Origin: Candidatus Babeliales bacterium
GTDB taxonomy: Bacteria > Babelota > Babeliae > Babelales > RVW-14
Assembly: GCA_041652535.1 (NCBI GenBank)
Contig: JBAZHB010000002.1
Location: forward strand, 1,582-65,581
Reading direction: 5' to 3'
Length of the DNA stretch: 64,000 bases
In this document: one piece after another, positions 49-41,213 of the stretch
Layout of the letters: each line of letters starts with the position of its first letter
Position numbering within the stretch: the first letter of the stretch is position 1
Translations under genes and position numbers: made by a program
Notes under the pieces: model-generated
Told to the model about the DNA's origin: nothing
What the model saw: the letters and a program-made list of their open reading frames with translations, nothing else
Database searches by the model: none

Positions 49-87
49 ACGCTGGCCGGCAACCTATTACTATTTATTTAATCCATT

Positions 88-3937: not shown

Positions 3938-4019
3938 TTTTTAATCCCCTTATAAAATATTACGGTTTCATTCGGCAACCGCAGCGTTTGTTATGCACTT
4001 TTTAACCTCATAACAAAGG

Positions 4020-5045: not shown

Positions 5046-5069
5046 TTTTAATCCTCCAATAAATTTATT

Positions 5070-5399: not shown

Positions 5400-5429
5400 C
5401 TTCCCTTCATATTTTCTCCAATAATTTAT

Positions 5430-6431: not shown

Positions 6432-6432
6432 A

Positions 6433-7718: not shown

Positions 7719-7732
7719 ATCTATATCCTTCC

Positions 7733-8432
7733 TTAATTTATTTTTCTTACCAACTCAAACGCTTCCGCAAGCTTTACCCCTGCCATAACCCCATAAAATT
7801 CGGCATGTGCGCGTAAACCTGCTGCACTTCGTGGATGCGGATATGGTCGTATCTCTGTGGTGTAACATTGCAAAGCCTTTATCTTTGTATCAAGGTCTGG
7901 ATATGTTATTTCAACAAAAACATTCGGTTTAAAGCTGCCGTCGCTCCATTCCGTTGATGATGGCGTTTCAAAGCAGTAGATTTCTTTGACTGTAGAGCAG
8001 TTTGGACGCAATGCCGTTGCAACTGCCTGAAACGTGATTCTGTGGTCAATATTGAGGTCACCGCCATGATGAGTATAGACAATATCGGGCTTCCATAAAT
8101 AAAGGTAAAACTCAATTGATTTAATTATCGATAATAGCGAAACGGTATCAAAAGCATTATCAGGATTTGATAGAAGCTCTATATGTTTAAACCCTATTAT
8201 CTCCGCTGCCGCTTTTGCATCTTTTTGTAACTCGCATAACTCTTGGCTATACGCAAATTGGCTGATAGACAATATATCGCCCTGAATATATTTTTGCATT
8301 CTTGAAGCAATACCTTCGCCCAATATTAAGCAGTATACTTCATCCCCTGCTAAAACGTGTTTGTGGAATGTGGCACCGCCGCCAAGTAACTCATCGTCAA
8401 GGATGGGCACAAATAATTAATATTTTCTGCAC
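7733..8432 (-). pseudogene. PIG-L/LmbE-family deacetylase interrupted by a +1 frame change at codon 11-12
   Basis: GTG at 8432 with RBS GAGGTGG gives VQKILIICAHP then TGA. Skipping one T (CAT CCT T GAC GAT GAG) restores AHPDDE and the 225-aa ORF 7733..8410 (HHGGDLNIDH motif). Confidence 0.7.
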
Positions 8433-8433
8433 C

Positions 8434-9036
8434 CTAAACCACCTCTTTCTTTAAGCTTTTATAGCTTTTAGTATTAATCAAACAGTCGCGCCATTTTTCA
8501 TATTGATATTTCTTTTTAGCTCTTAATGGGTATTCCTCAAAATGCGGAATCACAACATTTATCAAGTCCATTACTGGTTGCACTATATAAACCCATTGAT
8601 TTCTTCTAACTTCTGAAACATATTTAGGGTTCCAGTTATCCATGCTTTTCTTAACATCGCGATAATAAAGTTCACCAACTCCTAAATATTCCCGTATTGT
8701 TTCAAGAATTTCCTTATCGTCTTCTCTTAAAATTATCCTAAAACAAAATCCATGTTTACCATTCCCGTTAAAATTTGCTTCCCCATCAACAAAACCGGAT
8801 AACCAATTGCCAAATTTATCATCTTTTCCACGTTCTTTAAATTGTTTGCTATGTGATTTTAATTGACATGTCCAACAAAGCTTTGTTTTTAATGCACTCT
8901 TTGGGTTTAGTGGTATCCCACATGCACTACAAGATAACGGCTCTTTTCTTGTTCTGCACGAACGACATATTTTTGGTGGTTCCTTTTTGGTATGCATAAG
9001 TGTCTTCCCGCACTTTTCACAAATATAAGTTTTCAT
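8434..9036 (-). CDS. free-standing LAGLIDADG homing endonuclease with N-terminal zinc ribbons
   Basis: LSGFVDGEANF LAGLIDADG motif and FEEYPL..KK..Y..W tail. N-terminal CEKCG..CRSC, CSACG..CWTC. ATG at 9036 is preceded by AAGGAG. Confidence 0.8.
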   Translation of the reverse strand: MKTYICEKCGKTLMHTKKEPPKICRSCRTRKEPLSCSACGIPLNPKSALKTKLCWTCQLKSHSKQFKERGKDDKFGNWLSGFVDGEANFNGNGKHGFCFRIILREDDKEILETIREYLGVGELYYRDVKKSMDNWNPKYVSEVRRNQWVYIVQPVMDLINVVIPHFEEYPLRAKKKYQYEKWRDCLINTKSYKSLKKEVV

Positions 9037-9065
9037 TCGCACTCTCCTTTATTTCGCACCCTGTT

Positions 9066-9135
9066 TTTAAGCATAAGAAAAGGCAGGGAGTGCGTTCCTG
9101 CCTACAGTCTTGCAAAACTGCCTTATGCCAAATTT
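9066..9135 (-). repeat. structured intergenic element E1 upstream of the LAGLIDADG gene (copy 1 of 2)
   Basis: Read on the minus strand: TTTGGCATAAGG, imperfect palindrome CAGTTTTGCAAGACTG, hairpin GGCAGG..CCTGCC, then TTTTCTTATGC. Same architecture as 12061-12130. Confidence 0.7.
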
Positions 9136-9287
9136 ATTTTATTTCAAATCACTAATATCTTTTGCAACCCTTTTCATCTCCTTATTCGTCTTTATTGTCT
9201 GGTTCTATGCCAAATGCATTTAATGGCATACCACTTAATAAATCAATTACAGGCATCAAAAGAATAACTGATATTAAAATAATCCAT

Positions 9288-9725
9288 TCAAGCGTTTCTC
9301 TTTGCATAATACCCCGACTTCACCACAAACGGATTTCCAACTATTAACGAATACGGCGGTATAATCAGTCCATCCGCTATCAGGCATGTGTGTGCTGCCA
9401 CAACCGAATGATGCCCTATTTTTACCCTGCCGCCGATGAATGAATGACTGCCGACAAAAACATTATCCTCCAGGATGATGCAGCCTCTGTCAATTTCGTC
9501 TGCCAGGCCAATACATTTTTTATGACTGTCGGCGCAGTTGATTGAAACAAAGCTTGCTATGTCGCAATTATCGCCTATCTTCACGCTCCCGCCTTTTGCG
9601 TTTATTTCGGAAAAAAGCCCGATATAGGTATTTCTGCCGATATCGGGCGTTCCGTGAATAAAGGTAAGGGGATGGTAGGGATTGGAGGAAATTTGTAAAG
9701 CTTTTAAAATTAATTTTGTTATCAT
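9288..9725 (-). CDS. left-handed beta-helix (hexapeptide-repeat) acyltransferase
   Basis: 145 aa. Repeated [LIV]G-x4 hexapeptides (VKIGDNCDIASFVSI..., ILEDNVFVGSHSFIGGRVKIGHHSVVAAHT). Confidence 0.7.
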   Translation of the reverse strand: MITKLILKALQISSNPYHPLTFIHGTPDIGRNTYIGLFSEINAKGGSVKIGDNCDIASFVSINCADSHKKCIGLADEIDRGCIILEDNVFVGSHSFIGGRVKIGHHSVVAAHTCLIADGLIIPPYSLIVGNPFVVKSGYYAKRNA

Positions 9726-10471
9726 TTTATCACCATAACATCAGGAGTTTTAGCTTTAATAATTTTTACAATATCCAGCAAAGCTTCCTCTGCTTTGCTT
9801 GTTAGCTTATTGTTTTCGATTATATCAGCGAATGCGCGATATCTCTCAGGAACATACATCAATTGTAAAATCAACCCTTCGTCAATCTTGCTTGATACAT
9901 TTAGCACTTTCGATAATAATTCTATTGATTTTACAGCTTCCTCCATTGCTTTTATTGATTCTTCAAATATCTTTGCTGATTCTCTCAATATATCAGGAGT
10001 AATGTCTTTAATTTTATGTTCCTGACTTGTATTTATAGTTTCAGACAATAACCCATAATCACGTTCGTCAATCTTATGATTCTGCTGCATTTTTATTCGC
10101 TCCCTATTTTTAAGATTTTGATAAATGCTATCATCTTGATTTTTTTCATCCAACCATTCATCAAGTTTTTCTTTCATAAAAAATACCCTATTTCCAATTC
10201 TGAAATGAGGTATTTCTCCGTTTCTAACCATTTGCATTAATTTTCCATAACTACATCCGATATGTTCAGCCGCTTCATTTGGCAATAATCTGGATGGACT
10301 TATTCCTGTTTGAATTTTTTCTTGGTTTGTTTGATAACTGCTTTTTCTTCTTTCCTTGCGACACATTCTGCATTTTCCTCTTAACCCTTCCTTTGCAGTT
10401 TTATCTTTTTCAAAATATTCAAGAGTAGCAGGTAATTTTTTACCGCACTCATTGCATGTTTTTGTTTCCAT
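9722..10471 (-). CDS. zinc-ribbon + excisionase/MerR-type HTH DNA-binding protein
   Basis: 249 aa. CNECGKKLPATLEYFEKDK..GLRGKCRMCRKE, then AAEHIGCSYGKLMQMVRNGEIPHFRIGNRVFFMKEKLDEWL. Confidence 0.55.
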   Translation of the reverse strand: METKTCNECGKKLPATLEYFEKDKTAKEGLRGKCRMCRKERRKSSYQTNQEKIQTGISPSRLLPNEAAEHIGCSYGKLMQMVRNGEIPHFRIGNRVFFMKEKLDEWLDEKNQDDSIYQNLKNRERIKMQQNHKIDERDYGLLSETINTSQEHKIKDITPDILRESAKIFEESIKAMEEAVKSIELLSKVLNVSSKIDEGLILQLMYVPERYRAFADIIENNKLTSKAEEALLDIVKIIKAKTPDVMVIK

Positions 10472-10481
10472 AAAAATTCTC

Positions 10482-11165
10482 CTATTTTATTACAAGGTAA
10501 TCCACCATGTGGCTTGACTGCCATATCTGCGGGTTAATCTGTTTTATTAAGCATTCACTGAATCCTGCTTTGAGAGACAAATACATCATTTCCTGCGGAT
10601 TAATCCACAGGCGCGCGTTCTCCTGCTGCAATGATTCTTCTGTCTGCGGCATGCTGGCGATATGGGATTCCTTTTTGCTTAAGTCGGGATTGTGAGTCAG
10701 CAGGCATTTTCCGCCAGGCCTCATGACGTTGTATATATTTTGCAGGGCTGTCTGTACCTCGTCCATATTGGAAAGGTATTGCAGGACGCTTCCGACAAGG
10801 ACTTTAGTAAATATTGGATGTATAGGATCCACTAATTTAAATTGTTGCATTGTTAATATATCATCTTGAAATATAAAAACATTATTGAATGCTTGTGCTT
10901 GTGCTTGTGCTTTTTTAACTAATTCCGGGCTATAATCAAACATCGTCGCATTCCAAACAAATGGTGCCAAATGAAACGTTATCCATCCTGGCCCACCGCC
11001 GCAATCAAGCAATACGTCATTTTTGCACAGTTGGAGCGCGTTTTGCACGTCCTGGATATAAAGCAAAAACTGATACATTGTGAAGCTGTTGCCGCGTCCG
11101 GTTTGGGTAAAGTAGTTTTCAGTTTGGGCTTTAGCATCCCATAATGATTTCCAAAAATTCTCCAT
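10482..11165 (-). CDS. class I SAM-dependent methyltransferase
   Basis: 227 aa. VLLDCGGGPGW motif I, MFDYSPELV motif II. Confidence 0.7.
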   Translation of the reverse strand: MENFWKSLWDAKAQTENYFTQTGRGNSFTMYQFLLYIQDVQNALQLCKNDVLLDCGGGPGWITFHLAPFVWNATMFDYSPELVKKAQAQAQAFNNVFIFQDDILTMQQFKLVDPIHPIFTKVLVGSVLQYLSNMDEVQTALQNIYNVMRPGGKCLLTHNPDLSKKESHIASMPQTEESLQQENARLWINPQEMMYLSLKAGFSECLIKQINPQIWQSSHMVDYLVIK

Positions 11166-11181
11166 ATATGCTCCTTTTAAT

Positions 11182-12024
11182 TTATATTATCAAGCTTAGT
11201 TGTTGTATGGTTCCGTTATAATTAAGAAATTTTAAAATCCGTTTCTCCCTTTTCTTGTTATAAAATGGTTGTCTTTTATACCACTCAAAAAAATCAGCAT
11301 CGTTTTTAGAAGTATTACAGTTTTTACACGCTGTCACAATATTATTATGTGTATACTCGCCGCTCTTTGCAAGTGCGATAAAATGGTCTTGTTGTAATGG
11401 TTTTTCTTCTCCGCAATAAGCACATTTGTTGTTGAAATATTTTAATGTTGCATTCCACATTTCCTCAGAATAATTATCTAGTAATTCTTTTTTTCTAGTT
11501 CTCCGATTTTGTCCGTATATTCGATAATTAATGAGATGATTTTTACGATATTCTGCGCTGTGGCAGTTCGCATAATCTCTTCTTTTCTGTCTATCTCGTT
11601 CTCTATATATTTTTTCTTTTTCTTTACATTTTTCAATATTTCTCAGGCGGTAATTTTTGTGTAGTTCCCTTAATTTTTCGCAATTTTCAACGTTGTATTG
11701 TTTCCCCTTTTCTTTAATTATTTCGAGGTTTTCAATATAGTAATTCTTCCCATACTCTTTTATCCTATCTTTATTTTGTTGTCTCCAGTCATCTTTGTAT
11801 TGTTTTAACTTTTCAACATTTTCTTTATAATATTGTTTCTTTTGTTCTTTTACTTTTTCGGAATTTTCTTCAAACCATTGCTTCAATTTTTCTTTATTTT
11901 TTTCTCGGTATTCCTTCTCACATTCCTTACATTTGGAATATAATCCTAATTTTCCTTTTTTGGCTTTTTTGAAGTTATTGAAAGTAGCTTCTTTTGCAAT
12001 CCCGCATTTTGTACATACTTTAGT
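11182..12024 (-). CDS. free-standing HNH homing endonuclease with zinc ribbon and K-x-Y-x-x-N repeats
   Basis: CAYCG...DHFIALAKSGEYTHNNIVTACKNCNTSK HNH core. N-terminal CTKCG..CKECEKE and about 7 repeats of KxYYxxNxEKxK. ATG 12024 follows GAGGTG; an alternative start is at 12069. Confidence 0.8.
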   Translation of the reverse strand, partial: TKVCTKCGIAKEATFNNFKKAKKGKLGLYSKCKECEKEYREKNKEKLKQWFEENSEKVKEQKKQYYKENVEKLKQYKDDWRQQNKDRIKEYGKNYYIENLEIIKEKGKQYNVENCEKLRELHKNYRLRNIEKCKEKEKIYRERDRQKRRDYANCHSAEYRKNHLINYRIYGQNRRTRKKELLDNYSEEMWNATLKYFNNKCAYCGEEKPLQQDHFIALAKSGEYTHNNIVTACKNCNTSKNDADFFEWYKRQPFYNKKREKRILKFLNYNGTIQQLSLII

Positions 12025-12060
12025 CATAATAAGCACCTCGCATTCATTTAGCACTTTATT

Positions 12061-12130
12061 TAAAGGCATAAGAAAAGGACGTAGGTGCTTCTCACGTCCT
12101 CAATGTTGCAACATTGTCCTATGCCAAATT
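12061..12130 (-). repeat. structured intergenic element E2 upstream of the HNH gene (copy 2 of 2)
   Basis: Read on the minus strand: TTTGGCATAGG, perfect palindrome CAATGTTGCAACATTG, hairpin GGACGT..ACGTCC, then TTTTCTTATGCC. Confidence 0.7.
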
Positions 12131-12132
12131 GC

Positions 12133-12861
12133 TTAAAATATAATATAACTCGCGTTCGGGCTATACTGTGAGTGTATCAACCTATAATTTTCCAATCCAA
12201 GCACTTCCTGAGCCGCCAAACTTTCCCCCGGCCAGTCAGGGTGACATAATTCATCAAAGGCAATTATGCTGCCTTTTGTCAAGTGTCCTTTTAGTGCCAG
12301 TAATGCCGCCTTTGTGGGCTCATAGATATCAAAGTCCATGAAAGCCAATGCTGCGATAGTTTCGGGATGTTTCTCAAAATATGCCGGTACAGTATTGCAT
12401 GCATCCCCTTTGACCAGTTCATACTTTTTTATCTGGCTTAATGGTGACAGATTTTCATGGCATTGCAATAATTCTTCAAGATACTCATCATAGTTATCTG
12501 TAAGCTTCATTTCGTTAAGCTCATGATCGCCATCATTTTTGTGGATGGATGGAAAGCTTTGAAAAGTGTCAAAGCCTATAATCTTCCGGCTATAATTGAA
12601 TGGCTCAAGTGCGCCGCGAAACGATTCATAAAGCGCCATATTGCCGCCCCAGCGCACACCGAATTCCATTATAATTCCGTGTACCGGCAGAATCTTTTGA
12701 TAAATCTCATGTATGAAAAGGAATCGCATCATATGCTGCCGGCTTACGAAAAGTCCCATGTTGTACATTAGTTCGTCAACCGGAATCGGGCAATTTTTGT
12801 AAAGCTGCTGAAATTTTTCTTTATCTGATAATTCCCTTTTGGATGAAATTATTTCGCTCAT
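12133..12861 (-). CDS. TylF/MycF-like (Methyltransf_24) sugar O-methyltransferase family protein
   Basis: 242 aa. IIMEFGVRWGGN, GFDTFQSFP, FMDFDIYEPTKAAL, SIIAFDE resemble macrocin-O-methyltransferase-type proteins. Confidence 0.55.
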   Translation of the reverse strand: MSEIISSKRELSDKEKFQQLYKNCPIPVDELMYNMGLFVSRQHMMRFLFIHEIYQKILPVHGIIMEFGVRWGGNMALYESFRGALEPFNYSRKIIGFDTFQSFPSIHKNDGDHELNEMKLTDNYDEYLEELLQCHENLSPLSQIKKYELVKGDACNTVPAYFEKHPETIAALAFMDFDIYEPTKAALLALKGHLTKGSIIAFDELCHPDWPGESLAAQEVLGLENYRLIHSQYSPNASYIIF

Positions 12862-12886
12862 TTAAAAGCTCCTTTATATTTTATTT

Positions 12887-14113
12887 TTAATGCCTTTTGA
12901 ACACGGGTGAAATTTTACGCCCAAACAATATTCCTTCCGTTGAATCCTGCTCTATCGCCCTGCAAATATCACCCATTGCCTTACCTGCTGATAAAACAAA
13001 ATAATCAATGTCGTCCTTGCTGTGGCTTAAGGATACAAAGCCTGTATCACTGACTATGATTCCTGAGTTCAGCATTTTTTCCTCATAAATGCTTAATAAA
13101 TCGAGGTAATCAAGCTTTCCAATATCGCTAAATTTCAAGCCATTATGAGGCGGCATTCCAATAGTCGATATGCAATCGTTTAGACTGTAAAAGTTAATTG
13201 CCTGCTGTAACCCGTCAAGCATAGTTTGTCCAAGTGACCATATATGCTCATAGGTGCCGGGTTGTTCAAGAATTTCAATTACTGCCAATGCCGCCGCAAT
13301 AGAGAGGCATTCGCCGCCGAATGTCGTGCTGATAAACGCCTCGCCGGTGTCGATGAGGTTTAGTATGTCGCGCCGGCCGCATACTGCACTGATGGGCATT
13401 CCTCCGCCGTAAGCCTTGCCGATACAGGTTAAGTCAGGGGTCACGCCATAGTATTCTGCCGCGCCGCCGAGTGCAAAGCGGGCACCTGTGACAACCTCAT
13501 CAAATATCAATACCGCGCCGTTTTTATGGCACAGTTCTTTTATAGCTAGGAGATATCCATTTTTCGGGCCGTTCTCCATAACGGGTTCAAGAATAACGGC
13601 GGCGATTCTGCCGTTGTAGCCATCAAACCATGACTTCAAATCATCAATGTCATTATATTTAAATTTCTTTGTCAGGTTACTTGTTCCAAACGGTATCCCT
13701 TTGGCGCCCGGTTCAATTCCAATTGTCCAATCGTCCCAGCCATGATACCCTGCCTTTAAAACAATATCTCTGCCTGTGTACGCCCGGGCAAGTTTTACCG
13801 CCGCTGTGGTTACATCTTTTCCGTTTTTCATGAGTTTGCAGGCTTCGCAACCGGGTATAATCTTGGTGAGCTTTCGGCATAAATCCTGCTCAATTTGCGT
13901 GGGCGTGGAAAATGATATTCCTTTTTTGAGCTGCTTTTCAATTGCCGTGTTGATTCTTACGTCATTATGTCCGGTAAGCCCCGGGCCAAGTGCGCACGTG
14001 AAATCGCAATATTCGTTGCCTTCGGTGTCCCATACGCGAGAACCTTTGCCATGGTCAAGCATAATGTCACGGGTAAAATAGCGCATGCCTTTTGAATATG
14101 TCTGATAATGCAT
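12887..14113 (-). CDS. class-III PLP aminotransferase (glutamate-1-semialdehyde aminomutase-like)
   Basis: 408 aa. GYHGWDDW, and DEVVTGARFALGGAAEYYGVTPDLTCIGKAYGGGMPISAV carrying the PLP lysine. Confidence 0.85.
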   Translation of the reverse strand: MHYQTYSKGMRYFTRDIMLDHGKGSRVWDTEGNEYCDFTCALGPGLTGHNDVRINTAIEKQLKKGISFSTPTQIEQDLCRKLTKIIPGCEACKLMKNGKDVTTAAVKLARAYTGRDIVLKAGYHGWDDWTIGIEPGAKGIPFGTSNLTKKFKYNDIDDLKSWFDGYNGRIAAVILEPVMENGPKNGYLLAIKELCHKNGAVLIFDEVVTGARFALGGAAEYYGVTPDLTCIGKAYGGGMPISAVCGRRDILNLIDTGEAFISTTFGGECLSIAAALAVIEILEQPGTYEHIWSLGQTMLDGLQQAINFYSLNDCISTIGMPPHNGLKFSDIGKLDYLDLLSIYEEKMLNSGIIVSDTGFVSLSHSKDDIDYFVLSAGKAMGDICRAIEQDSTEGILFGRKISPVFKRH

Positions 14114-14114
14114 T

Positions 14115-14843
14115 CTATAGCCTCCATTTCCACGGATATTTTATTTCTTCCGGTACTTTCAAATCCAAAATTGCGCTTTCCAATGTCCATGGAATCCCAT
14201 ACCGTGTCAGTCCAATCAATTCCTGCAGCTGCTCAGCTGTGTCCACACCGACAACAACATAATCAATATACGGGTTGCCATATGTGAATAAAAATACCGC
14301 CTCTTTTCGGTTGATTCCGTATGGCTTGATAATGCCGTCCAACCGTTCAATATATTCCTTGCCGATCGGCGGTTCATCCATAAGTAAAAGCCCTTGTAAA
14401 AACACGGATCGGGCAATGGTAGTTATTTTATATTCCTTTGCCAGCTTGAAAAACTTTGTTTTCAAAATATTGTGGTCGAACGCATTATACGGAAATTCAA
14501 TTATGTTCATTTTCAGTTTTGCGGCCTTGACTGCCTCTTCCGGAGTATCAACCGAAACGCCATCCCAATCGCTGTCGTTAATCCTGCTGAATCCGTGTGC
14601 CAACTCCTGGCAACTTCGGTAGTGAAAATAATCCTGAAATTCATTTATTTGCTTGATGAACTTTACAGGGTATGCGGTTGTATCTTCATACGCCGTTGAG
14701 GTGTCGATAAGGTGAATCCCATTGTCAATTGCTGTATGCAGTATTTTTATTCCTTCATCCCGTGGCACCTGACTTTTGCACTTCACACCATACGGCTGAT
14801 AAAAATTTGCTACGCCGAGAATCAGCTTTGTCTTGATAGCCAT
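14115..14843 (-). CDS. aldo/keto reductase family oxidoreductase
   Basis: 242 aa. LILGVANF..YG, GIHLIDTSTAYEDT. Confidence 0.65.
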   Translation of the reverse strand: MAIKTKLILGVANFYQPYGVKCKSQVPRDEGIKILHTAIDNGIHLIDTSTAYEDTTAYPVKFIKQINEFQDYFHYRSCQELAHGFSRINDSDWDGVSVDTPEEAVKAAKLKMNIIEFPYNAFDHNILKTKFFKLAKEYKITTIARSVFLQGLLLMDEPPIGKEYIERLDGIIKPYGINRKEAVFLFTYGNPYIDYVVVGVDTAEQLQELIGLTRYGIPWTLESAILDLKVPEEIKYPWKWRL

Positions 14844-15496
14844 TTTAAAACATCCTCCATCAAAAATATTTTGCCAGGTTTATATAAAGCCTTATAAATC
14901 TGTGTGATAAATTCGTAATCCTGTTGTGTATCAAGCGTCCAGCGCAAACTAGACAAATCTTGCCCTTGCACTATAGCGAGAACTTTAAACCCGCTCCACA
15001 AAAAAAAGATATCATATTCCTTTTCAAAAAAGTTTATCTTATAGAAATCAGGTTGTTTTAATAACCCCGCCTTGAAAACCTCCACGTCCAATCCATCCGG
15101 AAATCTTCGTCCGATGCAGTTTGTTGTCAAATCATTATTTCCGTGATGTGAAATTATCATATCTATCAAATCCGGACAAACTAAGGCGCAATCACCTGTG
15201 ATGCGGACAATTGAATCATTATTCCTTATATTATAATACTCGATAGCTTTAATGTATCTATTTTTTACATCATCCTCTGAGCCACGGAAGCAATTTATTT
15301 GTATCTGCCTGCATAATGATTCTATTACATCGTTTTCCGGATTTGTGCTGGTGACAACTATTATCTTGTCAACCGTTTTGGCAAATCTCACGCGGTCAAT
15401 TATATGTGCCAAAACAGGTTTGCCGCATATCGGCAATAAAACTTTGCCGGGCAAACGTTGGCTTCCCATACGAGCTTGAATGAAACAATACTTCAT
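14822..15496 (-). CDS. SpsF/NeuA-type cytidylyltransferase (CTP_transf_3 family); first gene of the operon
   Basis: 224 aa. CFIQARMGSQRLPGKVLLPICGKPVLAHIIDRV is the family signature. Confidence 0.8.
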   Translation of the reverse strand: MKYCFIQARMGSQRLPGKVLLPICGKPVLAHIIDRVRFAKTVDKIIVVTSTNPENDVIESLCRQIQINCFRGSEDDVKNRYIKAIEYYNIRNNDSIVRITGDCALVCPDLIDMIISHHGNNDLTTNCIGRRFPDGLDVEVFKAGLLKQPDFYKINFFEKEYDIFFLWSGFKVLAIVQGQDLSSLRWTLDTQQDYEFITQIYKALYKPGKIFLMEDVLKWLSRQS

Positions 15497-15650
15497 ATTT
15501 ACCTCACATAAAAATAAGCTCCCCTCCCGGACATCTCCAACTATTTACTATTATAGCAATACAGTATAGTCAATTACTGCAAAGTTTTTGTGCAGTCCAA
15601 TGGCGAATTAAAATAGTCCGTTTGTCCATAAAAACATTATCAAAATAGTG

Positions 15651-30687: not shown

Positions 30688-31009
30688 AATAATTCCTCCC
30701 AAACTGCCGCATGAATTCGCTGTGTCCGTGAACGCCCTCAAACCGTTTCTGTCCCTCTTGCTTTAGTTGAGCGATTAAACCTCTGTCCAGTTCATCTGTT
30801 GTGTTCCTGTGGCATTGTGTACACAGTGAGACGTATAAACCATATCGTTCACTGTGCTGCCTGTCAGGATTGCCACCATATATGTGGTGACGTTCGAGGT
30901 CTACGGTACGGTGACAATTCCAGCAGTAGCCGAGCTCAAATAAACAAGGATACTTCTTCTTGCACGTCTTTTTGTATATTGGTTTAGGATATTGCTGTAC
31001 CTCAAACAT
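30662..31009 (-). CDS. Cys/His-box phage protein (NinG/DUF968-like; uncertain)
   Basis: CWNCH...HHIYGGNPDRQHSERYGLYVSLCTQCH. Confidence 0.35.
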   Translation of the reverse strand: MFEVQQYPKPIYKKTCKKKYPCLFELGYCWNCHRTVDLERHHIYGGNPDRQHSERYGLYVSLCTQCHRNTTDELDRGLIAQLKQEGQKRFEGVHGHSEFMRQFGRNYCEGSISEN

Positions 31010-31682
31010 CGGGGTGAGCCGCCTTGTATCTGATGTTTAAGCAGGGCTGGCACAATTCCAACTTATGGTATTTAATTCCGTCCGCAAGAATTTGTTCACA
31101 GGTCTTTTTCTTCGTTTCCTTTATTTCATTTCCGCAATCATGACAAAGGTGTACAGAATCATCTTTGTCGTCTCGTTCAGGTTTTCCACTCAAACATTCG
31201 GAATAATCAGGTTTATCTTTTTGCGTTGGCTTGCCCAGTTTGCCTGATGTATCCTTTAGATCGGGGTCGTCCTCATCTGTGGCAATCAGAAAGGACATTT
31301 TCAAGAAATACCTTTGTGAATATGTCAACCCACTTCCCAGTGACTTTGACGCCTCATCCTGCTGCCCGAAAAAGTACCAGGGTACATATTCGCGGTCTGC
31401 CGGTTCCTCTGCGTTTATCCATGTAAAGCCCATTGTTCCCTGGGTGATGAAGTCTGTCTTATCCTTGCCGGATGAATTGGTATAGTTGAATTCTTTAAGG
31501 GTACATTCTGACAGGGTAGGGATGAGTAAGACTTTAAGCTCATTCATTTTTTCCATGATTGCGGATAAGATATTGTCAGTGCTTATGTATGGGTAATCCT
31601 TAAAACCCACCTTACCTACCGTATCCTTTTTGAGTGCCTTGACGAGTTTGCGGATTTCTACCAGTTTTTCATGTAGAATCAT
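31002..31682 (-). CDS. ERF-family single-strand annealing protein
   Basis: KLVEIRKLVKALKKD...YPYISTDNILSAI...GSGLTYSQRYFLKMSFLIATDEDDPD. Confidence 0.7.
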   Translation of the reverse strand: MILHEKLVEIRKLVKALKKDTVGKVGFKDYPYISTDNILSAIMEKMNELKVLLIPTLSECTLKEFNYTNSSGKDKTDFITQGTMGFTWINAEEPADREYVPWYFFGQQDEASKSLGSGLTYSQRYFLKMSFLIATDEDDPDLKDTSGKLGKPTQKDKPDYSECLSGKPERDDKDDSVHLCHDCGNEIKETKKKTCEQILADGIKYHKLELCQPCLNIRYKAAHPDV

Positions 31683-35377: not shown

Positions 35378-35593
35378 CTATATAACCTTCTTCCGTGGGT
35401 CAGTTTCCCACGGCTGAACTTTGCCTAGCTTCCAGCGTATTACATCAACGTAGTACTTTGCATCTTTCAAGCTTTTGTGCTTGACTTCCCTAACGAGTTT
35501 TATTGCCTTAATTGGTTCATTTTCAAGTACCAGGTCTTTGACTTTGCGCTTTAAACTAAGCAGTTTTATTTCTACAAAATTGAAAAATACCAT
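35378..35593 (-). CDS. small protein with ribosomal L7/L12 C-terminal-domain-like motif
   Basis: PIKAIKLVREVKHKSLKDAKYYVD parallels L7/L12 [24 protein letters not shown]. ATG 35593 follows AGGAGGGG. Confidence 0.45.
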   Translation of the reverse strand: MVFFNFVEIKLLSLKRKVKDLVLENEPIKAIKLVREVKHKSLKDAKYYVDVIRWKLGKVQPWETDPRKKVI

Positions 35594-35606
35594 CGACTTT
35601 CCCCTC

Positions 35607-35819
35607 CTATAATTTAGTTTCATTGAGAATTTTGATTAACTGCGCTTGAATTCTGGCAATACAGAAGCTTAACTCCATAGGACTCATGCAACTAATTACG
35701 GTTTTAAGGTTGTTTTCTTCAAGTGCTACTAGTAAAAACTTTTCATAAATTTTCTGTTCTTCGCCAGGATCGTTAAAAATTACAATTACACTTGCAGATT
35801 CCATATCCTTGACCTCCAT
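35607..35819 (-). CDS. hypothetical small protein
   Basis: 70 aa ORF in operon register. Confidence 0.35.
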   Translation of the reverse strand: MEVKDMESASVIVIFNDPGEEQKIYEKFLLVALEENNLKTVISCMSPMELSFCIARIQAQLIKILNETKL

Positions 35820-35889
35820 TTCATTTAGTTTCGGAGAGGAAGCTACAGACTTACCTCTCCACTGTTTGATCGTGCTGCCCGGCTGATGG

Positions 35890-36138
35890 TTATACCTTTG
35901 CCTGTACGGTTTCTAGCGTGTCACCAATTTCTTTTACCTGGCTTCTTATACAAATTAGCCTTTCTCTTAAGTTTGCTGGCGGTTCTTTCTTGTCGCACGG
36001 CGGTTGAGGACTTGAACCGTACATTCTGTTATCAATGACATTAGCAAGACTGTTTACCTTGTCAAGTATGTCAATGATTTCCTGTGCTATGTCGTTTAAT
36101 AATTCGATCGGTGCTACTGCACATTTTGCCTCGTTCAT
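35890..36138 (-). CDS. hypothetical small protein
   Basis: 82 aa from ATG 36138 (RBS GGAAGGAGG), immediately downstream of tRNA-like gene A. Confidence 0.45.
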   Translation of the reverse strand: MNEAKCAVAPIELLNDIAQEIIDILDKVNSLANVIDNRMYGSSPQPPCDKKEPPANLRERLICIRSQVKEIGDTLETVQAKV

Positions 36139-36176
36139 ACATTTACCTCCTTCCGTAAATTTTGCCTTTCGGCTTG

Positions 36177-36295
36177 TGGGAAAGGTGAGAGTCGAACTCA
36201 CAATACCTGTTTCCCTTGGTCTAGCAAATACGCACAATCGTCATTGTGTAGTTTGCTATTCCGCACCAGTGCGTTACCAATTTCGCTACTTCCCC
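36177..36295 (-). tRNA. tRNA-like gene A (119 nt): class-II-type body, no canonical anticodon arm, 37-nt hairpin insertion
   Basis: Acceptor GGGGAAG/CTTTCCC (7 bp, one G-U). D-arm GCG-AAATTGGTAA-CGC. T-arm GTGAG-TTCGACT-CTCAC. Discriminator A. The central 44 nt between CTGGT and ACCAA contains a TAGCAAA/TTTGCTA + CACAAT/ATTGTG hairpin. Confidence 0.5.
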
Positions 36296-36310
36296 ATATT
36301 GGCGGATATT

Positions 36311-36631
36311 TCAGTCCGCCGTTTTTGTCATAATCGCAACATACATTTCCCCCGAAAGCACCTCTGTCCCTTGACAGTCTATTTCTATCCTGCAATGCGG
36401 GTTAAAGTTAGCCATTAACCAATCCTGCAACGGTTTTGCCAGCGCTCCCAATTCGTCATATTTTTCCTGTCCCTTTGCTTCTTCGTTCCAGCATTTTTCA
36501 CAATTATGTGGCGTATAAATATCTTTAGGTGTAGGGCATCGCACATTTGGAGGGCATTCTTCCAGCATAATTGCATCTTTAACCGGGACTTGTTTCGGAT
36601 TATTTTGCAGATATAACTCTATCCTTGTCAT
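36311..36631 (-). CDS. hypothetical Cys-containing protein lying between the tRNA-like genes
   Basis: 106 aa from ATG 36631 (RBS AAGGA). Confidence 0.45.
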   Translation of the reverse strand: MTRIELYLQNNPKQVPVKDAIMLEECPPNVRCPTPKDIYTPHNCEKCWNEEAKGQEKYDELGALAKPLQDWLMANFNPHCRIEIDCQGTEVLSGEMYVAIMTKTAD

Positions 36632-36748
36632 TTTTGCACATCCTTTATTTTTTATTTGCCTTTCGGCTTGCCGGATACGCTCCGGCGGGCGGCATGTGCT
36701 CACCTGATTTATACTCTCAGTCGGTACATGCTTCGTGTGTGGAGCTTG

Positions 36749-36782
36749 CGGGAAAGGTGAGGCTGGTTACTCACTCTCTCCC
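36749..36782 (-). ncRNA. tRNA minihelix-like element (acceptor stem + T-arm only)
   Basis: GGGAGAG-A-GTGAG-TAACCAGC-CTCAC-CTTTCCC-G. The 3' half is near-identical to the 3' end of tRNA-like A. Lies 6 nt after tRNA-like B. Confidence 0.4.
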
Positions 36783-36788
36783 ATATAG

Positions 36789-36888
36789 TGGACGGAGCAG
36801 GATTTGAACCTGCACGATTGCCTACTCTTTCGTTCGGAACTTTCACCGGATTAAGATTCCGGCGCGGCTACCATTTCGCCATCCGTCC
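36789..36888 (-). tRNA. tRNA-like gene B (100 nt): Leu-type (class II) body, CUU in the anticodon position, 32-nt variable region
   Basis: Acceptor GGACGGA/TCCGTCC (perfect). TG + GCG-AAATGGTAGC-CGC D-arm. CCGGA-ATCTTAA-TCCGG anticodon arm. T-arm GCAGG-TTCAAAT-CCTGC. Discriminator A. Confidence 0.55.
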
Positions 36889-36927
36889 ATATTAGCGGGC
36901 ATCCTCGCCCGCTTTGCTTAGTGCGAA

Positions 36928-37230
36928 CTATTTTGCAAGAAAATGGCCGTCTTTCACAACTTCAAAATTGCCCTTTTTAACATACATCAGCATGCCGTCT
37001 CCGCCTTCTTCCCACCATTCCTTCACATCTTCAACAGTTTGCCATCCCTGAACCGGATCAGTCTTATCCATGTTAAAAAGCCCTTCGTAAAATCTCGGCT
37101 GGTCAGCATCCTTGCATCCGTATACAATCAAGTCACCTACGACACCGACACGTCCAACGATGTCGATATTCTTTAAGTAATCATATGTGTCGCCGCCCGT
37201 AACCCTTGCGAATACTATTTTATCTGCCAT
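36928..37230 (-). CDS. hypothetical protein
   Basis: 100 aa from ATG 37230 (RBS GGAGGG). Confidence 0.45.
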   Translation of the reverse strand: MADKIVFARVTGGDTYDYLKNIDIVGRVGVVGDLIVYGCKDADQPRFYEGLFNMDKTDPVQGWQTVEDVKEWWEEGGDGMLMYVKKGNFEVVKDGHFLAK

Positions 37231-37256
37231 TAAAATCCCTCCACTCATTTACAAAT

Positions 37257-37436
37257 TCATTTCAACTCTCTTTCCCCCGCCCCCATTTCCCTCACCTGCA
37301 CCCATTTCGCAACCCTCAGGCATTGCAGGAATATCTCCCGTGCATCTGCCAGCGTTGTCCGGGTGCGAAACGGCAGGCGGTTGGCGCGTATGTCTGCTGT
37401 TGCCATATCGAGGGCTGTTTTGGTTAGATTAGTCAT
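37257..37436 (-). CDS. possible small protein
   Basis: 59 aa from ATG 37436; weak RBS spacing. Confidence 0.25.
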   Translation of the reverse strand: MTNLTKTALDMATADIRANRLPFRTRTTLADAREIFLQCLRVAKWVQVREMGAGERELK

Positions 37437-37506
37437 TATGGGTGAGCCTCCAGTTTCCAAATTTCTGATTATGTGGTAAAATTGTGTCGAAAGGGGGTGA
37501 ATATAT

Positions 37507-38045: not shown

Positions 38046-38771
38046 TTAGGCCGATAATGCTTTTTGTCTATCCAGTACTTTCCTGATATAGTCAAGTCCC
38101 TTCTGGTAGACTAACGTTTTAATACTGATGCAGGTTGTTCCGTCCGGCTTCGTGTACTTCTGTTCAACTACTCTGAAATAGCCACGGTCAACATATTCCT
38201 GATAAGGCTCGTTATTATCTCTCAATATGCCTTCTGACCGGAGAATCCTGAATAATACATTCCTGCCCTTGCCATAGTTCAGTACTTTTGCAGCCTGTGA
38301 CATTTCAATAGCATCTTTACTGTTGGCTACTGCATCAAAGAATTCAGCTTTGGGCTTCATAAGGGCTATCACTTCATCTTTGGATTCAATGAGCTTCTGA
38401 GCTTCGATGAGTGCGGTTGCTATGAGTAGTTGTGGGGTCATTTTCTGATGAAAGTAATTTTCAACCAGCATTTCATAAACTTCCCACGCCTTGTCTGTAT
38501 TGAGTGATTTGGCATGAAGCAATGTGCCCTTTTCTGTCCAGAGCATGAATTTATTGATGTTTGGCGCAAGGTAGCAATTTGATACTTCGCCCTTAAAGGC
38601 TTGTAATTCCTCGCCCTCAAGAATGAAATAATGTATGCCTAGAATGTACCTATCCTGATTCCGCATAAAGTTCTGTCTTATGCGCTCGGTCTCGGTTTCG
38701 TAACCATCTGCCAGTTGCTGAGTAGTCAATACTCTCTGATTTTTGTGTTCGATTGGTACAAGACTGTTCAT
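38046..38771 (-). CDS. phage antirepressor (ORF6N/KilA-N-like N-domain + KilAC/ANT C-domain)
   Basis: NQRVLTTQQLADGYETETERIRQNFMRNQDRYILGIHYF, and C-terminal AEFFDAVANSKDAIEMSQAAKVL...YFRVVEQKY. Confidence 0.8.
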   Translation of the reverse strand: MNSLVPIEHKNQRVLTTQQLADGYETETERIRQNFMRNQDRYILGIHYFILEGEELQAFKGEVSNCYLAPNINKFMLWTEKGTLLHAKSLNTDKAWEVYEMLVENYFHQKMTPQLLIATALIEAQKLIESKDEVIALMKPKAEFFDAVANSKDAIEMSQAAKVLNYGKGRNVLFRILRSEGILRDNNEPYQEYVDRGYFRVVEQKYTKPDGTTCISIKTLVYQKGLDYIRKVLDRQKALSA

Positions 38772-39802: not shown

Positions 39803-40177
39803 ATGGAGGTGGATGAATTGAGTATAGGTGAAAGAATAAAGAGTATAAGAATGGGACAAAAAATTAAGCAAGGAGATGCGGCTGTCAAGATTGGAATTAA
39901 ACAGGGAAGCCTTTCTGATATTGAAAGAGGAAAAGTTAATATAGTAACAGATAGGGTAATAAAAGATGTTTGCCGCGAATTTAATGTGAATGAAGAATGG
40001 CTTAGGACTGGCATTGGAGAAGTGTATAACAGTTTCAATATTGACTTTGAAGAGTTCTTATTAACGAATGCTAGTCAACTTGACGAACTCGATAGAAAGA
40101 TAATACAAGAGTATATTAAATTAAAACCTAACCAAAGAAATGTTATTAAGGAATATATTAGCAAATTGACGATTTGA
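39803..40177 (+). CDS. XRE/cI-type HTH repressor
   Basis: IGERIKSIRMGQKIKQGDAAVKIGIKQGSLSDIERGK. The true start may be TTG at 39818 after GGAGGTGG. Confidence 0.75.
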   Translation: MEVDELSIGERIKSIRMGQKIKQGDAAVKIGIKQGSLSDIERGKVNIVTDRVIKDVCREFNVNEEWLRTGIGEVYNSFNIDFEEFLLTNASQLDELDRKIIQEYIKLKPNQRNVIKEYISKLTI

Positions 40178-40187: not shown

Positions 40188-41213
40188 ATGAAACTCCCGA
40201 ACGGATATGGCACCATATATCGATTACCCGGAAACCGCAGAAGGCCTTACATGACTCGCAAGACTATCGGCAAAACAGATACTGGAAAGCCGATTTATGA
40301 AACGATAGGGTACTTTGAAGACAAGGAACTGGCGTTGAATGCGTTAGTAAAAAGTCACACAGAACCCATAATACCAAAAGCAGATATAACCCTAAAAGAT
40401 TTATATGATGAATGGTATCCCGATAAATATGAGTATATTTCAAAGCAAACAGAGGATTGCTATAGAGCTGCATGGAATCGCTTATCTGTATATGGCAAGG
40501 TCGAATTTAAAGAACTAAGGACAGGTCACATTCAATCGGTCGTCAATAAGTGTCATAAGGAAGGCAAAAGCATTTCAACTATAAAAAATATTAAAATATT
40601 GGCTTCAATGCTTTACGATTATGCCCTGCAAAATGATGTGGTCAATAAAAATTATGCTGAATTTGTCAGACTTCCTAAAGTTGAAAAAGAAGAAAAAGAA
40701 ATATTTACCGACTTAGAAATACAGAAACTAGAAAAGGCAGAGGGCGAACCATGGGTTGATACAATACTCATACTGATATATACAGGGTTGAGGATAAATG
40801 AACTTTTAAGTCTTACAAAATTCAGTATAAACTTTGAAAACCAAACAATAACCGGAGGACTTAAAACCGAAGCTGGTAAGAACAGGATAATACCCATACA
40901 CCCAAAGATATTAAAATATATAAAAACATGGTATGACAAAAATGGTGAATATCTTATATGCAATGAAAAAGGCAAGCATTTGTCGGACAGGGTATACCGT
41001 GATACGCTTTACCTTCCGGCACTTGATGCCCATGGGGTGAGAAAACTTAATCCTCATAGTTGCCGTCATACCTGCGCCAGCTTATTGGCGAAAGCCGGAG
41101 CCGACACTCTATATATTCAGAGGATACTCGGTCATGCTAAGTATTCTTTTACTGCCGACACTTATACTCGCACCGATATTGAGGAACTCAGGAAAGCCAT
41201 TTTGAAAATTTGA
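40188..41213 (+). CDS. int: tyrosine-type site-specific integrase
   Basis: 341 aa. TGLRINELLSL (Arg box), HSCRHTCASLL, LGHAKYSFTADTYT (catalytic Tyr region). Confidence 0.9.
   Translation: MKLPNGYGTIYRLPGNRRRPYMTRKTIGKTDTGKPIYETIGYFEDKELALNALVKSHTEPIIPKADITLKDLYDEWYPDKYEYISKQTEDCYRAAWNRLSVYGKVEFKELRTGHIQSVVNKCHKEGKSISTIKNIKILASMLYDYALQNDVVNKNYAEFVRLPKVEKEEKEIFTDLEIQKLEKAEGEPWVDTILILIYTGLRINELLSLTKFSINFENQTITGGLKTEAGKNRIIPIHPKILKYIKTWYDKNGEYLICNEKGKHLSDRVYRDTLYLPALDAHGVRKLNPHSCRHTCASLLAKAGADTLYIQRILGHAKYSFTADTYTRTDIEELRKAILKI

Follow-up and report, generated by a model that had tools for sequence, protein, structure and literature searches.

tRNA-derived elements in a conserved module at phage gene boundaries, and their possible use as RNA processing signals

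The transfer RNA (tRNA) punctuation of mitochondrial transcripts, together with the MALAT1 mascRNA, provides a general precedent for the structures described in this paper. The closest described system is found in plant mitochondria, where t-elements, even those that amount only to acceptor-like stem-loops, allow RNase P and RNase Z to make the 5′ and 3′ ends of mRNAs (Forner et al. 2007, PMC1920247). In bacteria, the optimal RNase P substrate combines a stem of 12 base pairs (bp), a contact to the T-loop, A(-2)U(-1)/G(+1) at the point of cleavage, and a 3′ RCCA which base-pairs to L15; substrates that are not tRNAs, such as the phage C4 RNA, offer an extended stem instead of a T-loop (PMC10731613). 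Published remarks of a general kind also credit phages with ‘tRNA or tRNA-like’ candidate structures (PMC10690425). Here we study a stretch of 64,000 nucleotides (nt) from a contig binned as Candidatus Babeliales (JBAZHB010000002.1, assembly GCA_041652535.1, positions 1,582 to 65,581), to which, at its full length, we refer as the window. On its minus strand, at 36136-36930, where genes are densely packed, three tRNA-shaped elements are spread over two intergenic regions. In the 5′ to 3′ order of that strand we call them B, the minihelix and A.

In the literature that we searched, there is no description of this module, nor of a series from tRNA to minihelix at phage gene boundaries. We argue below that the three elements very probably belong to a family of real, tRNA-derived elements that occupy a conserved module in uncultivated temperate phages. 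We propose furthermore, with a confidence that we would put at an even chance, that these elements may act as intercistronic RNase P/RNase Z processing signals in the phage early mRNA.

Anatomy of the three elements

The initial annotation of this region, made from the letters alone, described two minus-strand tRNA-like genes with normal acceptor, D and T arms, a discriminator A73 and abnormal middles. The Rfam tRNA model RF00005 agrees with this description, since it accepts both elements by skipping their middles. The match to B scores 54.8 bits (E 4.9e-9 in the 64-kb window, with a gathering score of 29), and the alignment contains a complete cloverleaf with a 7-bp acceptor stem and discriminator A73, after which positions 74-76 read CUA. 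The D-arm of B, GCG-AAAUGGUAGC-CGC, is of the Leu/Tyr type (class II) with its GG present, and the T-arm, GCAGG-UUCAAAU-CCUGC, has a canonical loop; all 7 acceptor pairs and all 5 T pairs are formed. The anticodon arm is perfect (CCGGA-AUCUUAA-UCCGG), with anticodon CUU and with U33 and A37 in place. The alignment bears out the arm and the CUU anticodon that had been pointed out before, along with a variable region of 32 nt that had resisted folding; this region is weakly paired and exceeds both the canonical 4-5 nt and a paired arm of about 10-24 nt. The minimum free energy (MFE) fold of B is the cloverleaf, at -37.5 kcal/mol (z-score -3.1), and none of 200 shuffled sequences is as stable.

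RF00005 also matches A, with 45.1 bits (E 2.3e-6), but here the model skips 57 nt at the position of the anticodon loop. The acceptor stem of A, GGGGAAG/CUUUCCC, is of the Tyr type, and the same GGGGAAG occurs in a canonical tRNA-Tyr(GUA) that occupies the same slot in one of the relatives described below (L101; we label related loci in this way throughout). The D-arm retains its GG, the T-loop is UUCGACU, the discriminator is A73, and again 7 of 7 acceptor pairs and 5 of 5 T pairs are formed. It had been observed that A has no anticodon arm of the 5-7-5 form and contains a two-tier hairpin instead. Indeed, the anticodon loop is replaced by GCGGAA, a 37-nt two-tier hairpin and a G, followed by a variable region of 14 nt; the hairpin is part of the MFE fold, and the fold of A overall is not better than that of its shuffles (z -1.5). 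We rejected further readings of the insert. An intron is contradicted by the lack of a match to the group I model (RF00028; the inserts are 37-57 nt long) and, on inspection, of any bulge-helix-bulge geometry around the insert. Removing the 37-nt hairpin does not restore a normal tRNA, as the remaining loop, GCGGAAG, has no U33. A K-turn in the GCGGAA bulge fails on inspection as well, since the opposing strand is AG and not GA.

The third element, the minihelix, starts 6 nt past the end of B. Its 3′ half was said to copy that of A, and the 3′ strand, CUCACCUUUCCC, is identical in the two. The loop of the minihelix, UAACCAGC (36759-36766), is not a canonical T-loop, its discriminator is G, and CAA comes next. 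Short as it is, the element folds at -18.5 kcal/mol, with a z-score of -6.4 against shuffles. Since neither A nor the minihelix possesses an anticodon loop, these two cannot be odd-decoding or mis-charging tRNAs, which had been one of the readings on offer; that reading applies, if at all, to B. A decoy, another of those readings, is likewise conceivable for B, and nothing found here speaks for it.

How distinctive are these three sites? For the whole window, ARAGORN reports no tRNA and no transfer-messenger RNA (tmRNA). The check for an overlooked standard cloverleaf thus comes out differently for the two programs and elements: there is none for A, Rfam finds one for B, and ARAGORN calls neither. 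When Rfam 15 is run on the element region with E up to 10, RF00005 alone passes, the remaining matches being weak, tRNA-derived or due to chance; in the same search there is no match to tmRNA, manA (RF01745) or yjdF. We also ran a covariance model of the 12-bp acceptor/T core over the 64 kb with filters off. The three sites rank first, with nothing else comparable, and the minihelix is the top match within the window to the core model R1.

The surroundings of the elements are as regular as their stems. The motif (A/T)ATAT precedes all three, and a GC hairpin precedes A and B, as had been read directly in the sequence: the preceding hexamers are UAAUAU (B), CUAUAU (minihelix) and CAAUAU (A), and the hairpins stand 5-6 nt from their elements. 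The triplet at positions 74-76 is CAA in A, CUA in B and CAA in the minihelix, and in none of them CCA. A repeated segment had been placed at 36163 and 36658. The repeat is real, the 16-mer CAAGCCGAAAGGCAAA having exactly two copies in the window, at 36161-36176 and 36655-36670, so that the stated positions are off by 2-3 nt. All other coordinates and sequence details of the initial annotation proved correct. Past the second copy there follow an AU-rich tract, a weak Shine-Dalgarno (SD) sequence, and the ATG (36629-36631) of the open reading frame (ORF) 36311-36631.

Two other interpretations of the leader were considered and rejected. As a -10 box, (A/T)ATAT would lie 0-5 nt from the 5′ end of the element, and no -35 partner is called. 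Alternatively, A(-2)U(-1)G(+1) could be the AUG of a mini-ORF, but no SD sequence lies upstream, a hairpin being there instead, and the lengths vary (M-G-K-stop in A, 5 codons in the minihelix, 15 in B). We judge these mini-ORFs to be a by-product of the RNase P consensus.

The family and what it conserves

Relatives of the elements were reached by two degenerate DNA patterns, scanned over IMG/VR and over JGI/ENA metagenomes; loose structural scans were swamped by false positives, and scans anchored in the flanks were used instead. The first pattern, consisting of the leader and the D-arm common to A and B, led to L038 in IMG/VR. In this locus, the hairpin upstream and the AAUAU leader are those seen in the window; a tRNA-like element of 110 nt with a B-type shell comes next, and then A-CCA-GCCGAAAGGC. 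Its start region, GGAGGUAAAUGUAUG, is as in the window and stands before an unrelated ORF. The second pattern, the motif formed by the GNRA hairpin and the ribosome-binding site (RBS), led to 19 loci in IMG/VR and 91 in metagenomes, most of them from landfill, digester, bioreactor, fermentation and termite-gut samples. Directly upstream of this motif there is a tRNA, a tRNA-like element or a minihelix in about one third of roughly 90 distinct contexts. The resulting module has a conserved order: GC hairpin, (U/A)A(U/C)AU leader, element, A73, CCA or CAA, GCCGAAAGGC hairpin, AU-rich tract, SD sequence, ATG. A hairpin of the type GGCGGG...CCCGCC is found at the same position in nearly all curated relatives, and GGAGGUAAAUGUAUG is common to the window, L038, L057, L071, L093 and others, before unrelated ORFs. 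A search for covariation in related phage loci had been suggested at the outset, and this module, along with the compensatory pairing reported below, is what it yielded.

We curated 31 distinct elements, of 33-187 nt, which range from a canonical tRNA to a bare minihelix. ARAGORN makes canonical calls in the slot for Tyr(GUA) in L101, Thr(UGU) in L082/L157 and Lys(CUU) in L154, makes one odd call in L149, and rejects all others. Counting L149, there are thus 4 canonical or near-canonical elements versus 27 that are not (~1:8). The latter can be arranged by how much they retain. A full-size group keeps the GG of the D-arm and a canonical T-loop around a scrambled or expanded middle (A and B of the window, L038, L057, L067, L068, L093a/b, L143). 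A reduced group is without a D-arm (L056/L060, L058, L066, L070, L073, L090 and others). Exact minihelices, homologous to that of the window and with a loop of the form UARYCARN, occur in L071/L100, L081 and L121; further contexts hold plain hairpins followed by CCA or CAA. In the broken stems of L143 and L057, inspection reveals the remnants CUGUAAA and CGUAAAU of a Tyr anticodon loop.

Each element has a middle of its own; the exceptions are the D-arm that members share, the near-identical pairs L056/L060 and L136/L146, and the pair L068/L093a. In an all-against-all comparison, no fetched locus contains a homologue of the middle of A or of B. Nor does any relative keep the anticodon arm of B, the locus with an identical 3′ end (L111) running into the edge of its contig. 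B may be the least decayed member of the family.

The shell behaves quite differently from the middles. Across 28 cores, the 12-bp acceptor/T helix is paired in 97.3% of 336 cells, a figure inflated by the fact that some elements were ascertained by their pairing. Changes on both sides of a pair are seen at 10 of the 12 helix pairs. The covariation score is 0.80, versus 0.29 in shuffles, and 0 of 500 shuffles reach 0.80, although relatedness among the members inflates such shuffle tests. When, as a control, the partner strand is slid by 1-3 columns, pairing drops to 47-60%. Among elements defined by their flanks alone, 19 of 24 keep at least 6 of 7 acceptor pairs, the exceptions being compound loci or false leader matches; this flank-only test is smaller, and its null is high through shared acceptors. 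One pair of loci is particularly informative. The 155-nt middles of L068 and L093a are 92% identical, yet three changes separate their acceptors, two of them fully compensatory and one compatible with wobble pairing; the shell of L093a equals that of L038. From this L068/L093a/L038 mosaic we conclude that shells and middles recombine and that the shell is kept at the level of RNA.

The flanking positions are nearly invariant as well: A at -4 in 27 of 29 elements, A at -2 in 29 of 29, U at -1 in 28 of 29, and G at +1 in all 31. On the 3′ side, A73 is present in 27 of 31, and positions 74-76 are CCA in 19, CAA in 8 and CUA in 2 of the 31. All three elements of the window have U(-1) and G(+1); A and B have A73, and the minihelix G73. 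U8 is retained in full-size forms, and in B-type members a U immediately precedes the T-stem, as is required in Leu-type tRNAs by the A15-U48 Levitt pair. Taken together, the alignments indicate that the acceptor/T helix, the leader and the A73-CCA/CAA tail are under constraint as RNA while the middles turn over, a pattern that, on this comparison, is not plain decay.

Nonetheless, neutral decay deserves to be weighed explicitly. According to this explanation, the elements are tRNA pseudogenes at various stages of erosion, which resemble one another as recent copies recombined among mosaic phages, and the shell is functionless. Such a history is in keeping with the canonical tRNAs in the slot and with the ongoing loss of acceptor pairs (5 of 7 left in L136; 6 of 7 in L056, L060, L090, L102 and L146); many T-loops are degenerate; the mosaic L093a, with its shell as in L038 and its middle as in L068, points to frequent recombination; and the identical 3′ strand of A and the minihelix fits a recent partial duplication. 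Under decay, however, stems should erode like middles, yet the middles are unalignable while 97% of the stem cells are paired, with many compensatory changes. Deletion has led repeatedly to precise minihelices (in the window, L071, L081 and L121) rather than to random fragments, the leader and A73 are nearly invariant, and the excess of non-canonical members, about 8:1, implies that the gutted state is long-lived. We therefore consider neutral decay quite unlikely. The initial reading of A and B as disrupted pseudogenes holds for their origin, given the canonical tRNAs in the slot of relatives, but is incomplete in view of a shell that is constrained across 31 relatives.

Three observations on parts of the family may be added. 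The 8-nt loop UARYCARN replaces the canonical T-loop where the D-loop has no GG or is absent; it is carried by the window minihelix, L071, L081, L108, L121, L132, L136/L146 and L158, and examples are UAACCAGC, UAGCCAAC, UAGUCAAU, UAGCCAAU, UAACCAAU and UAGUCAAG. Because this loop is conserved across different stems, it probably has some role. Secondly, the downstream module with its GNRA hairpin and RBS, C(A/C)AGCCGAAAGGC-(U/A)AAUAAAUUU-AGGAGG, is found in more than 90 distinct metagenomic contexts, often before unrelated ORFs, and in one termite-gut group it has no tRNA-like element upstream; to judge from its distribution, it has the look of an independent, portable cassette for translation initiation or for mosaic junctions. 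Finally, at 7769-7994 (-) of L057, ARAGORN reports a tmRNA with the tag ETDRFNKAG*, overlapping the element in the slot; this call is probably a false positive caused by the tRNA-like acceptor/T half.

Processing signals and competing explanations

Since the features retained by the family match the RNase P optimum, we propose that the elements may mark sites at which the early mRNA is processed. This possibility was not considered in the initial annotation, whose overall view of tRNA-derived elements with abnormal middles stands, and it is the one that the comparative data favour. In what follows we infer co-transcription, cleavage, stabilisation and history, on the basis of the anatomy, conservation pattern and consensus match that were observed. 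A promoter and terminator scan of 36142-36927 finds no minus-strand terminator, and the sole sigma-70-like match lies inside the start of an ORF; the elements would then be co-transcribed with the flanking ORFs.

Host RNase P would cut the polycistronic transcript between 36889 and 36888, between 36783 and 36782, and between 36296 and 36295. RNase Z would cut past the discriminator where positions 74-76 are CAA or CUA, as they are in all three window elements; in Firmicutes, substrates without CCA are the class on which RNase Z acts. Members that encode CCA would follow a different 3′ pathway. As a result of the predicted cleavages, the upstream message would be left with a terminal GC hairpin that blocks 3′ exonucleases, while the downstream message would start at or near the GNRA hairpin before a strong ribosome-binding site, which would stabilise its 5′ end. 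The excised tRNA-like RNAs, of 33-119 nt, would be either by-products or small RNAs with a second role. As to history, the slot may first have held a useful early tRNA, of which Tyr, Thr and Lys are the canonical cargoes seen; once use of the tRNA lapsed, the anticodon domain would have decayed, expanded or been deleted, and the shell would have been kept because maturation of the operon mRNA had come to depend on it.

A number of points weigh against this proposal. In Bacillus subtilis an encoded CCA, as found here in 19 of 31 elements, blocks RNase Z; because of this block, 3′ cleavage would not be uniform across the family. A match to the RNase P consensus is also true of every genuine tRNA gene. 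The anticodon arm of B is flawless, which a pure processing signal would not need, and many contexts of the GNRA hairpin and RBS contain no tRNA-like element at all, so that the downstream half works alone. The statistical support, in addition, is subject to the ascertainment, relatedness and high null mentioned above. The stable hairpin 5-6 nt upstream lies inside the leader region that is bound by the RNase P protein, and leader structure can slow RNase P cleavage about 10-fold (PMC10731613).

The same arrangement of tRNA-like fold, AU-rich tract, SD sequence and ATG could also be understood as a translation enhancer acting in cis, where the tRNA-like fold stays in place as the 5′ leader of the mRNA, contacts the ribosome through its L-shape, and boosts the next ORF. 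When authentic tRNAs were grafted before an epsilon enhancer and SD sequence, translation in vitro rose 2- to 6.3-fold, the elbow (G19/G20) being needed and the ACCA barely so (Trachman et al. 2022, PMC9142559). In the phage elements this layout occurs naturally, with the GNRA/RBS motif immediately after 21 of 31 elements, and full-size members keep U8, the GG of the D-loop, a canonical T-loop and the U before the T-stem. But minihelices and plain hairpins, with neither a D-arm nor a canonical T-loop, sit in the same slot, and B precedes another element and not an RBS. Conservation in the family, moreover, is highest in the acceptor helix and in the leader A(-2)U(-1)G(+1); in the grafting experiments the acceptor contributed only about 25% and the leader was not tested (PMC9142559), and for an enhancer of this kind the 5′ leader consensus has no relevance. 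RNase P would also be expected to detach such a leader in vivo. We regard the enhancer as unlikely.

The perfect anticodon arm of B suggests a different alternative, namely that B is a working tRNA or an anticodon-arm decoy and that A and the minihelix are its dead relatives. It would read AAG, be charged by the lysyl-tRNA synthetase (through U35, U36 and A73) or by the leucyl-tRNA synthetase (through its Leu-type body), and replace the host tRNA-Lys or shield it from an anticodon nuclease. B does possess all parts of the cloverleaf, with U33, A37 and A73, its MFE fold is the cloverleaf, it has an unusual A32, and L154 has a canonical tRNA-Lys(CUU) in this slot. Phage tRNA-Lys and tRNA-Tyr are known to counter PrrC and retron-Eco7 PtuAB (PMC11555353), and phage tRNAs with changes in the anticodon loop evade such nucleases (PMC10264068). 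Yet the 32-nt variable region is weakly folded and beyond what ARAGORN accepts, no relative keeps the anticodon arm (L111 being incomplete at its contig end), and other members of the same shell type are without one. Codon usage does not come to its aid either: AAG accounts for 39% of the Lys codons of the phage part versus 33% in the left part of the window, an unremarkable difference that shows no marked demand, and we rejected codon demand as a driver. A decoding or decoy function for B thus appears improbable to us.

It is also conceivable that the shell is a scaffold for processing and stability and that the middle is the cargo, be it a small RNA, an aptamer, a riboswitch-like domain or a decoy for a protein. 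Some middles reach about 155 nt, and one is conserved between differing shells (L068/L093a). In L132, 884-1035 (-) aligns end to end with the manA model at 31.4 bits (E 4.6e-6, gathering score 55.2), such that the upstream hairpin, closing stem and last hairpin of manA fall on the module hairpin, the acceptor and the T-arm. RNAs of the manA class are found in the 5′ untranslated regions (UTRs) of diverse cyanophage genes (PMC2864571), and yjdF is a known riboswitch related to tRNA-Lys (PMC9142559). Nevertheless, only a single relative yields the manA match, at a score under the threshold, minihelices carry no cargo, and A folds no more stably than its shuffles (z -1.5). For the middles of A and B there is neither a homologue nor an Rfam match at E up to 10, and a search of the window for antisense targets of these middles and of the 78-nt spacer gave nothing beyond chance. 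We find such a scaffold very unlikely. In a wider form of this idea, the shell would be an expression scaffold from which RNase P and RNase Z free stable small RNAs: B would provide a copy of the tRNA-Lys(CUU) anticodon stem-loop as a decoy for, or a substitute resistant to, an anticodon nuclease, the middles of relatives would be riboswitch-like or protein-binding, manA would be the catalogued tip of the family, and phages would swap cargo within a fixed cassette between early genes. This broader speculation, too, we hold to be rather doubtful.

Genomic setting and comparison with known systems

The features of the region are listed in Table 1, in the 5′ to 3′ order of the minus strand.

Table 1. 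Elements and flanking features in the two intergenic regions (coordinates of the window).
Feature	Position	Strand	Description
GC hairpin before B	36894-36913	-	AGCGGGC-GAGGAU-GCCCGCU; 14 nt past the stop of ORF 36928-37248, 5 nt before B
Leader AAUAU before B	36889-36893	-	single-stranded; family consensus (U/A)A(U/C)AU
Element B	36789-36888	-	100-nt full-size tRNA-like element; RF00005 match, cloverleaf MFE fold
Spacer CUAUAU	36783-36788	-	3′ trailer of B and 5′ leader of the minihelix
Minihelix	36749-36782	-	34 nt; acceptor GGGAGAG/CUUUCCC, one linker nt, T-stem GUGAG/CUCAC, 8-nt loop
78-nt spacer module	36671-36748	-	two hairpins, between the minihelix and the second GNRA-hairpin motif
CAAGCCGAAAGGCAAA, copy 2	36655-36670	-	GCC-GAAA-GGC tetraloop hairpin at 36658-36667
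GC hairpin before A	36301-36320	-	GGCGGA-CUGAAAUA-UCCGCC; includes the TGA stop of ORF 36311-36631
Leader AAUAU before A	36296-36300	-	family leader
Element A	36177-36295	-	119-nt tRNA-like element, anticodon loop replaced; RF00005 match
CAAGCCGAAAGGCAAA, copy 1	36161-36176	-	CAA = positions 74-76 of A; GCC-GAAA-GGC hairpin at 36164-36173
AU-rich tract and start	36136-36160	-	SD sequence GGAGG at 36146-36150; ATG at 36136-36138 of ORF 35890-36138

On the plus strand, the window encodes a tyrosine integrase (40188-41213) and a helix-turn-helix repressor (39803-40177); on the minus strand there are a Cro/Xis-like ORF, a KilAC/ORF6N antirepressor (38046-38771), many small ORFs and an Erf recombinase (31002-31682). 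The window thus holds the control region of a temperate phage, and the elements lie within its leftward early operon, on the coding strand. An attP site or integration scar was set aside as an explanation, as the elements are 3-4 kb from the integrase, inside the operon, and recur with pairing at the RNA level. The left of the window (1-15500) encodes enzymes of polysaccharide biosynthesis (Polysacc_synt_2, DegT aminotransferase, class III aminotransferase), and tail genes lie to the right of the mid-window integrase. The prophage boundaries are uncertain, as is the binning of the contig to Candidatus Babeliales, such binning being unreliable for a phage contig. DNA that is 100% identical occurs in two short metagenome contigs, and when a large structural protein was used as query, the sole match, a distant one, was to a Methanosarcinales virus.

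The GC hairpin at 36894-36913 has no U-tract behind it, and no minus-strand terminator is called there. On the plus strand, at 36300-36321, TTTTTGT comes after the hairpin upstream of A, which is called terminator-like; this hairpin could block antisense transcription that enters the early operon. The 78-nt spacer consists of a GCAUGU...ACAUGC hairpin, enclosing ACUGAG-R-G-KAUAAAU-YAGG, and a second hairpin, GCCGGA-GCGUA-UCCGGC, with CAAGC at either end of the spacer in the window. The same spacer module is present in L106 (about 2680-2760) and L090 (about 440-524), behind a tRNA-like element or before the motif. In L158, tandem degenerate tRNA-like elements are separated by CUAAAUAU, an arrangement that resembles the order B-CUAUAU-minihelix of the window.

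Several mechanically called ORFs, of 45-115 amino acids, cross the elements (36709-36846, 36198-36395 and 35890-36237 on the minus strand, 36625-36807 on the plus strand), and one metagenome gene caller lengthens ORF 36311-36631 to 130 amino acids, across the spacer. ORFs that run through tRNA-like elements are likely to be artefacts of annotation. As this region illustrates, tRNA finders overlook the elements and gene callers draw spurious ORFs over them.

With blastn, 35500-37500 has no match among 50,697 phage records. ORF 36311-36631 has no homologue but itself among 5.8 billion proteins and none in IMG/VR; ORF 36928-37248 has one relative at 54% (L001), with no tRNA-like element beside it; and exact-protein look-ups return only the two short contigs identical to the window. 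The pattern specific to B, combining its D-arm with the CUU loop, has no match in IMG/VR, and in bacteria sampled at one genome per species it finds only unrelated sequences, which we rejected: Bacteroidota tRNA arrays, an oddity in Paenibacillus, and chance matches. A pattern for the T-arm and acceptor of A was discarded too, as it returned ordinary phage tRNA-Tyr genes and unrelated hairpins.

Some further loci merit a record. Bacteroidota contigs L005, L014, L015, L007, L006 and L010 contain Leu-type 5′ halves with the stem-loop CUCUUAA and long non-tRNA sequence, beside long tRNA arrays, and L004 (Paenibacillus rhizophilus) contains an aberrant tRNA-like sequence whose acceptor is perfect and whose 6-bp stem carries an 18-nt loop; these oddities, unrelated to the window family, receive 0 ARAGORN calls, and most are under the Rfam threshold. 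In the large IMG/VR phage contigs L037 and L049, a tRNA-Leu(UAA) is interrupted right after CUU, the classic group I site, and in L048 it is uninterrupted; the interrupted genes have no relation to the family either. A GOLLD RNA (234.9 bits) lies among phage tRNA genes at 1731-2159 (-) of L036. Within the family locus L038, positions 1-495 hold eight tandem 60-nt repeats (ACCAGCTTACCAGCCTGCCGGATAACCTTAC...) in an apparent coding region, upstream of a PAPS-reductase-like gene.

If the processing proposal is true, phages would punctuate their operons by means of the host's tRNA-processing enzymes, as is known for mitochondria and for a few long non-coding RNAs of eukaryotes. The proposal would then explain the lone, aberrant or ‘pseudo’ tRNAs that appear in annotations of phage genomes, and would tie aberrant tRNAs to the current view that phage tRNAs start out as counter-defence tools, with the shell kept afterwards for RNA maturation. 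For the in vivo requirements of bacterial RNase P, the family would represent a deletion series made by nature. As a compact and portable unit (hairpin, leader, 33-nt minihelix, GNRA hairpin, RBS), the module could, moreover, serve in engineered operons much like synthetic tRNA-gRNA arrays.

How, then, do these elements compare with what has been described? B recalls the nev-tRNAs of nematodes, which place a non-cognate anticodon on a class-II body. It likewise resembles bacterial allo-tRNAs in joining a Leu/Tyr-type D-arm, A73 and a long extra region to a Lys anticodon (PMC5389517). Unlike either, B has the standard 7/5 split of acceptor and T-stem, and not 8/4 or 9/3, and its extra region is longer and poorly paired. 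Phage tRNAs that act against host defences, such as the T5 tRNA-Tyr against retron-Eco7 PtuAB and tRNA-Lys against PrrC (PMC11555353; PMC10264068), are similar in being lone Tyr, Lys or Thr tRNAs in phages; the canonical members of the family match them, and B has the CUU anticodon. But A and the minihelix cannot decode, and the body of B is abnormal.

The manA RNAs (RF01745; Weinberg et al. 2010, PMC2864571) share with the module that they are structured phage RNAs in 5′ UTRs, with a 5′ hairpin, a closing stem and several hairpins, the last of which abuts the stem, and then ACC. They are known from marine cyanophages, however, and L132 is below their threshold. Our own reading of the Rfam consensus line suggests that manA RNAs may be tRNA-derived too, and we found no published claim to this effect. 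Leaders with a tRNA in cis, together with yjdF, a relative of tRNA-Lys turned cis-regulator (Trachman et al. 2022, PMC9142559), display the same tRNA shape before an enhancer, SD sequence and ORF, whereas the phage family tolerates loss of the elbow that is needed there.

The t-elements of plant mitochondria are likewise tRNA-like structures within longer transcripts, intercistronic in position and graded from true tRNA through tRNA-like form to stem-loop. In their case the ends coincide with mRNA ends, and an excised t-element can gain C or CA (PMC1920247), while for the phage elements processing is deduced from sequence. In contrast to the organellar setting, the elements studied here belong to a phage operon in a bacterium or archaeon, have fixed flanking hairpins and a ribosome-binding region, and bear no sequence relationship to t-elements. 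The non-tRNA substrates of bacterial RNase P (the C4 RNA of phages P1 and P7, the precursors of tmRNA and 4.5S RNA, and some operon mRNAs) have in common with our elements the 12-bp helix, U(-1)/G(+1) and 3′ RCCA (PMC10731613). Whereas each of those substrates is a single, specific RNA, what we find in phages is an evolving family, placed at gene boundaries and drawn from several tRNA origins.

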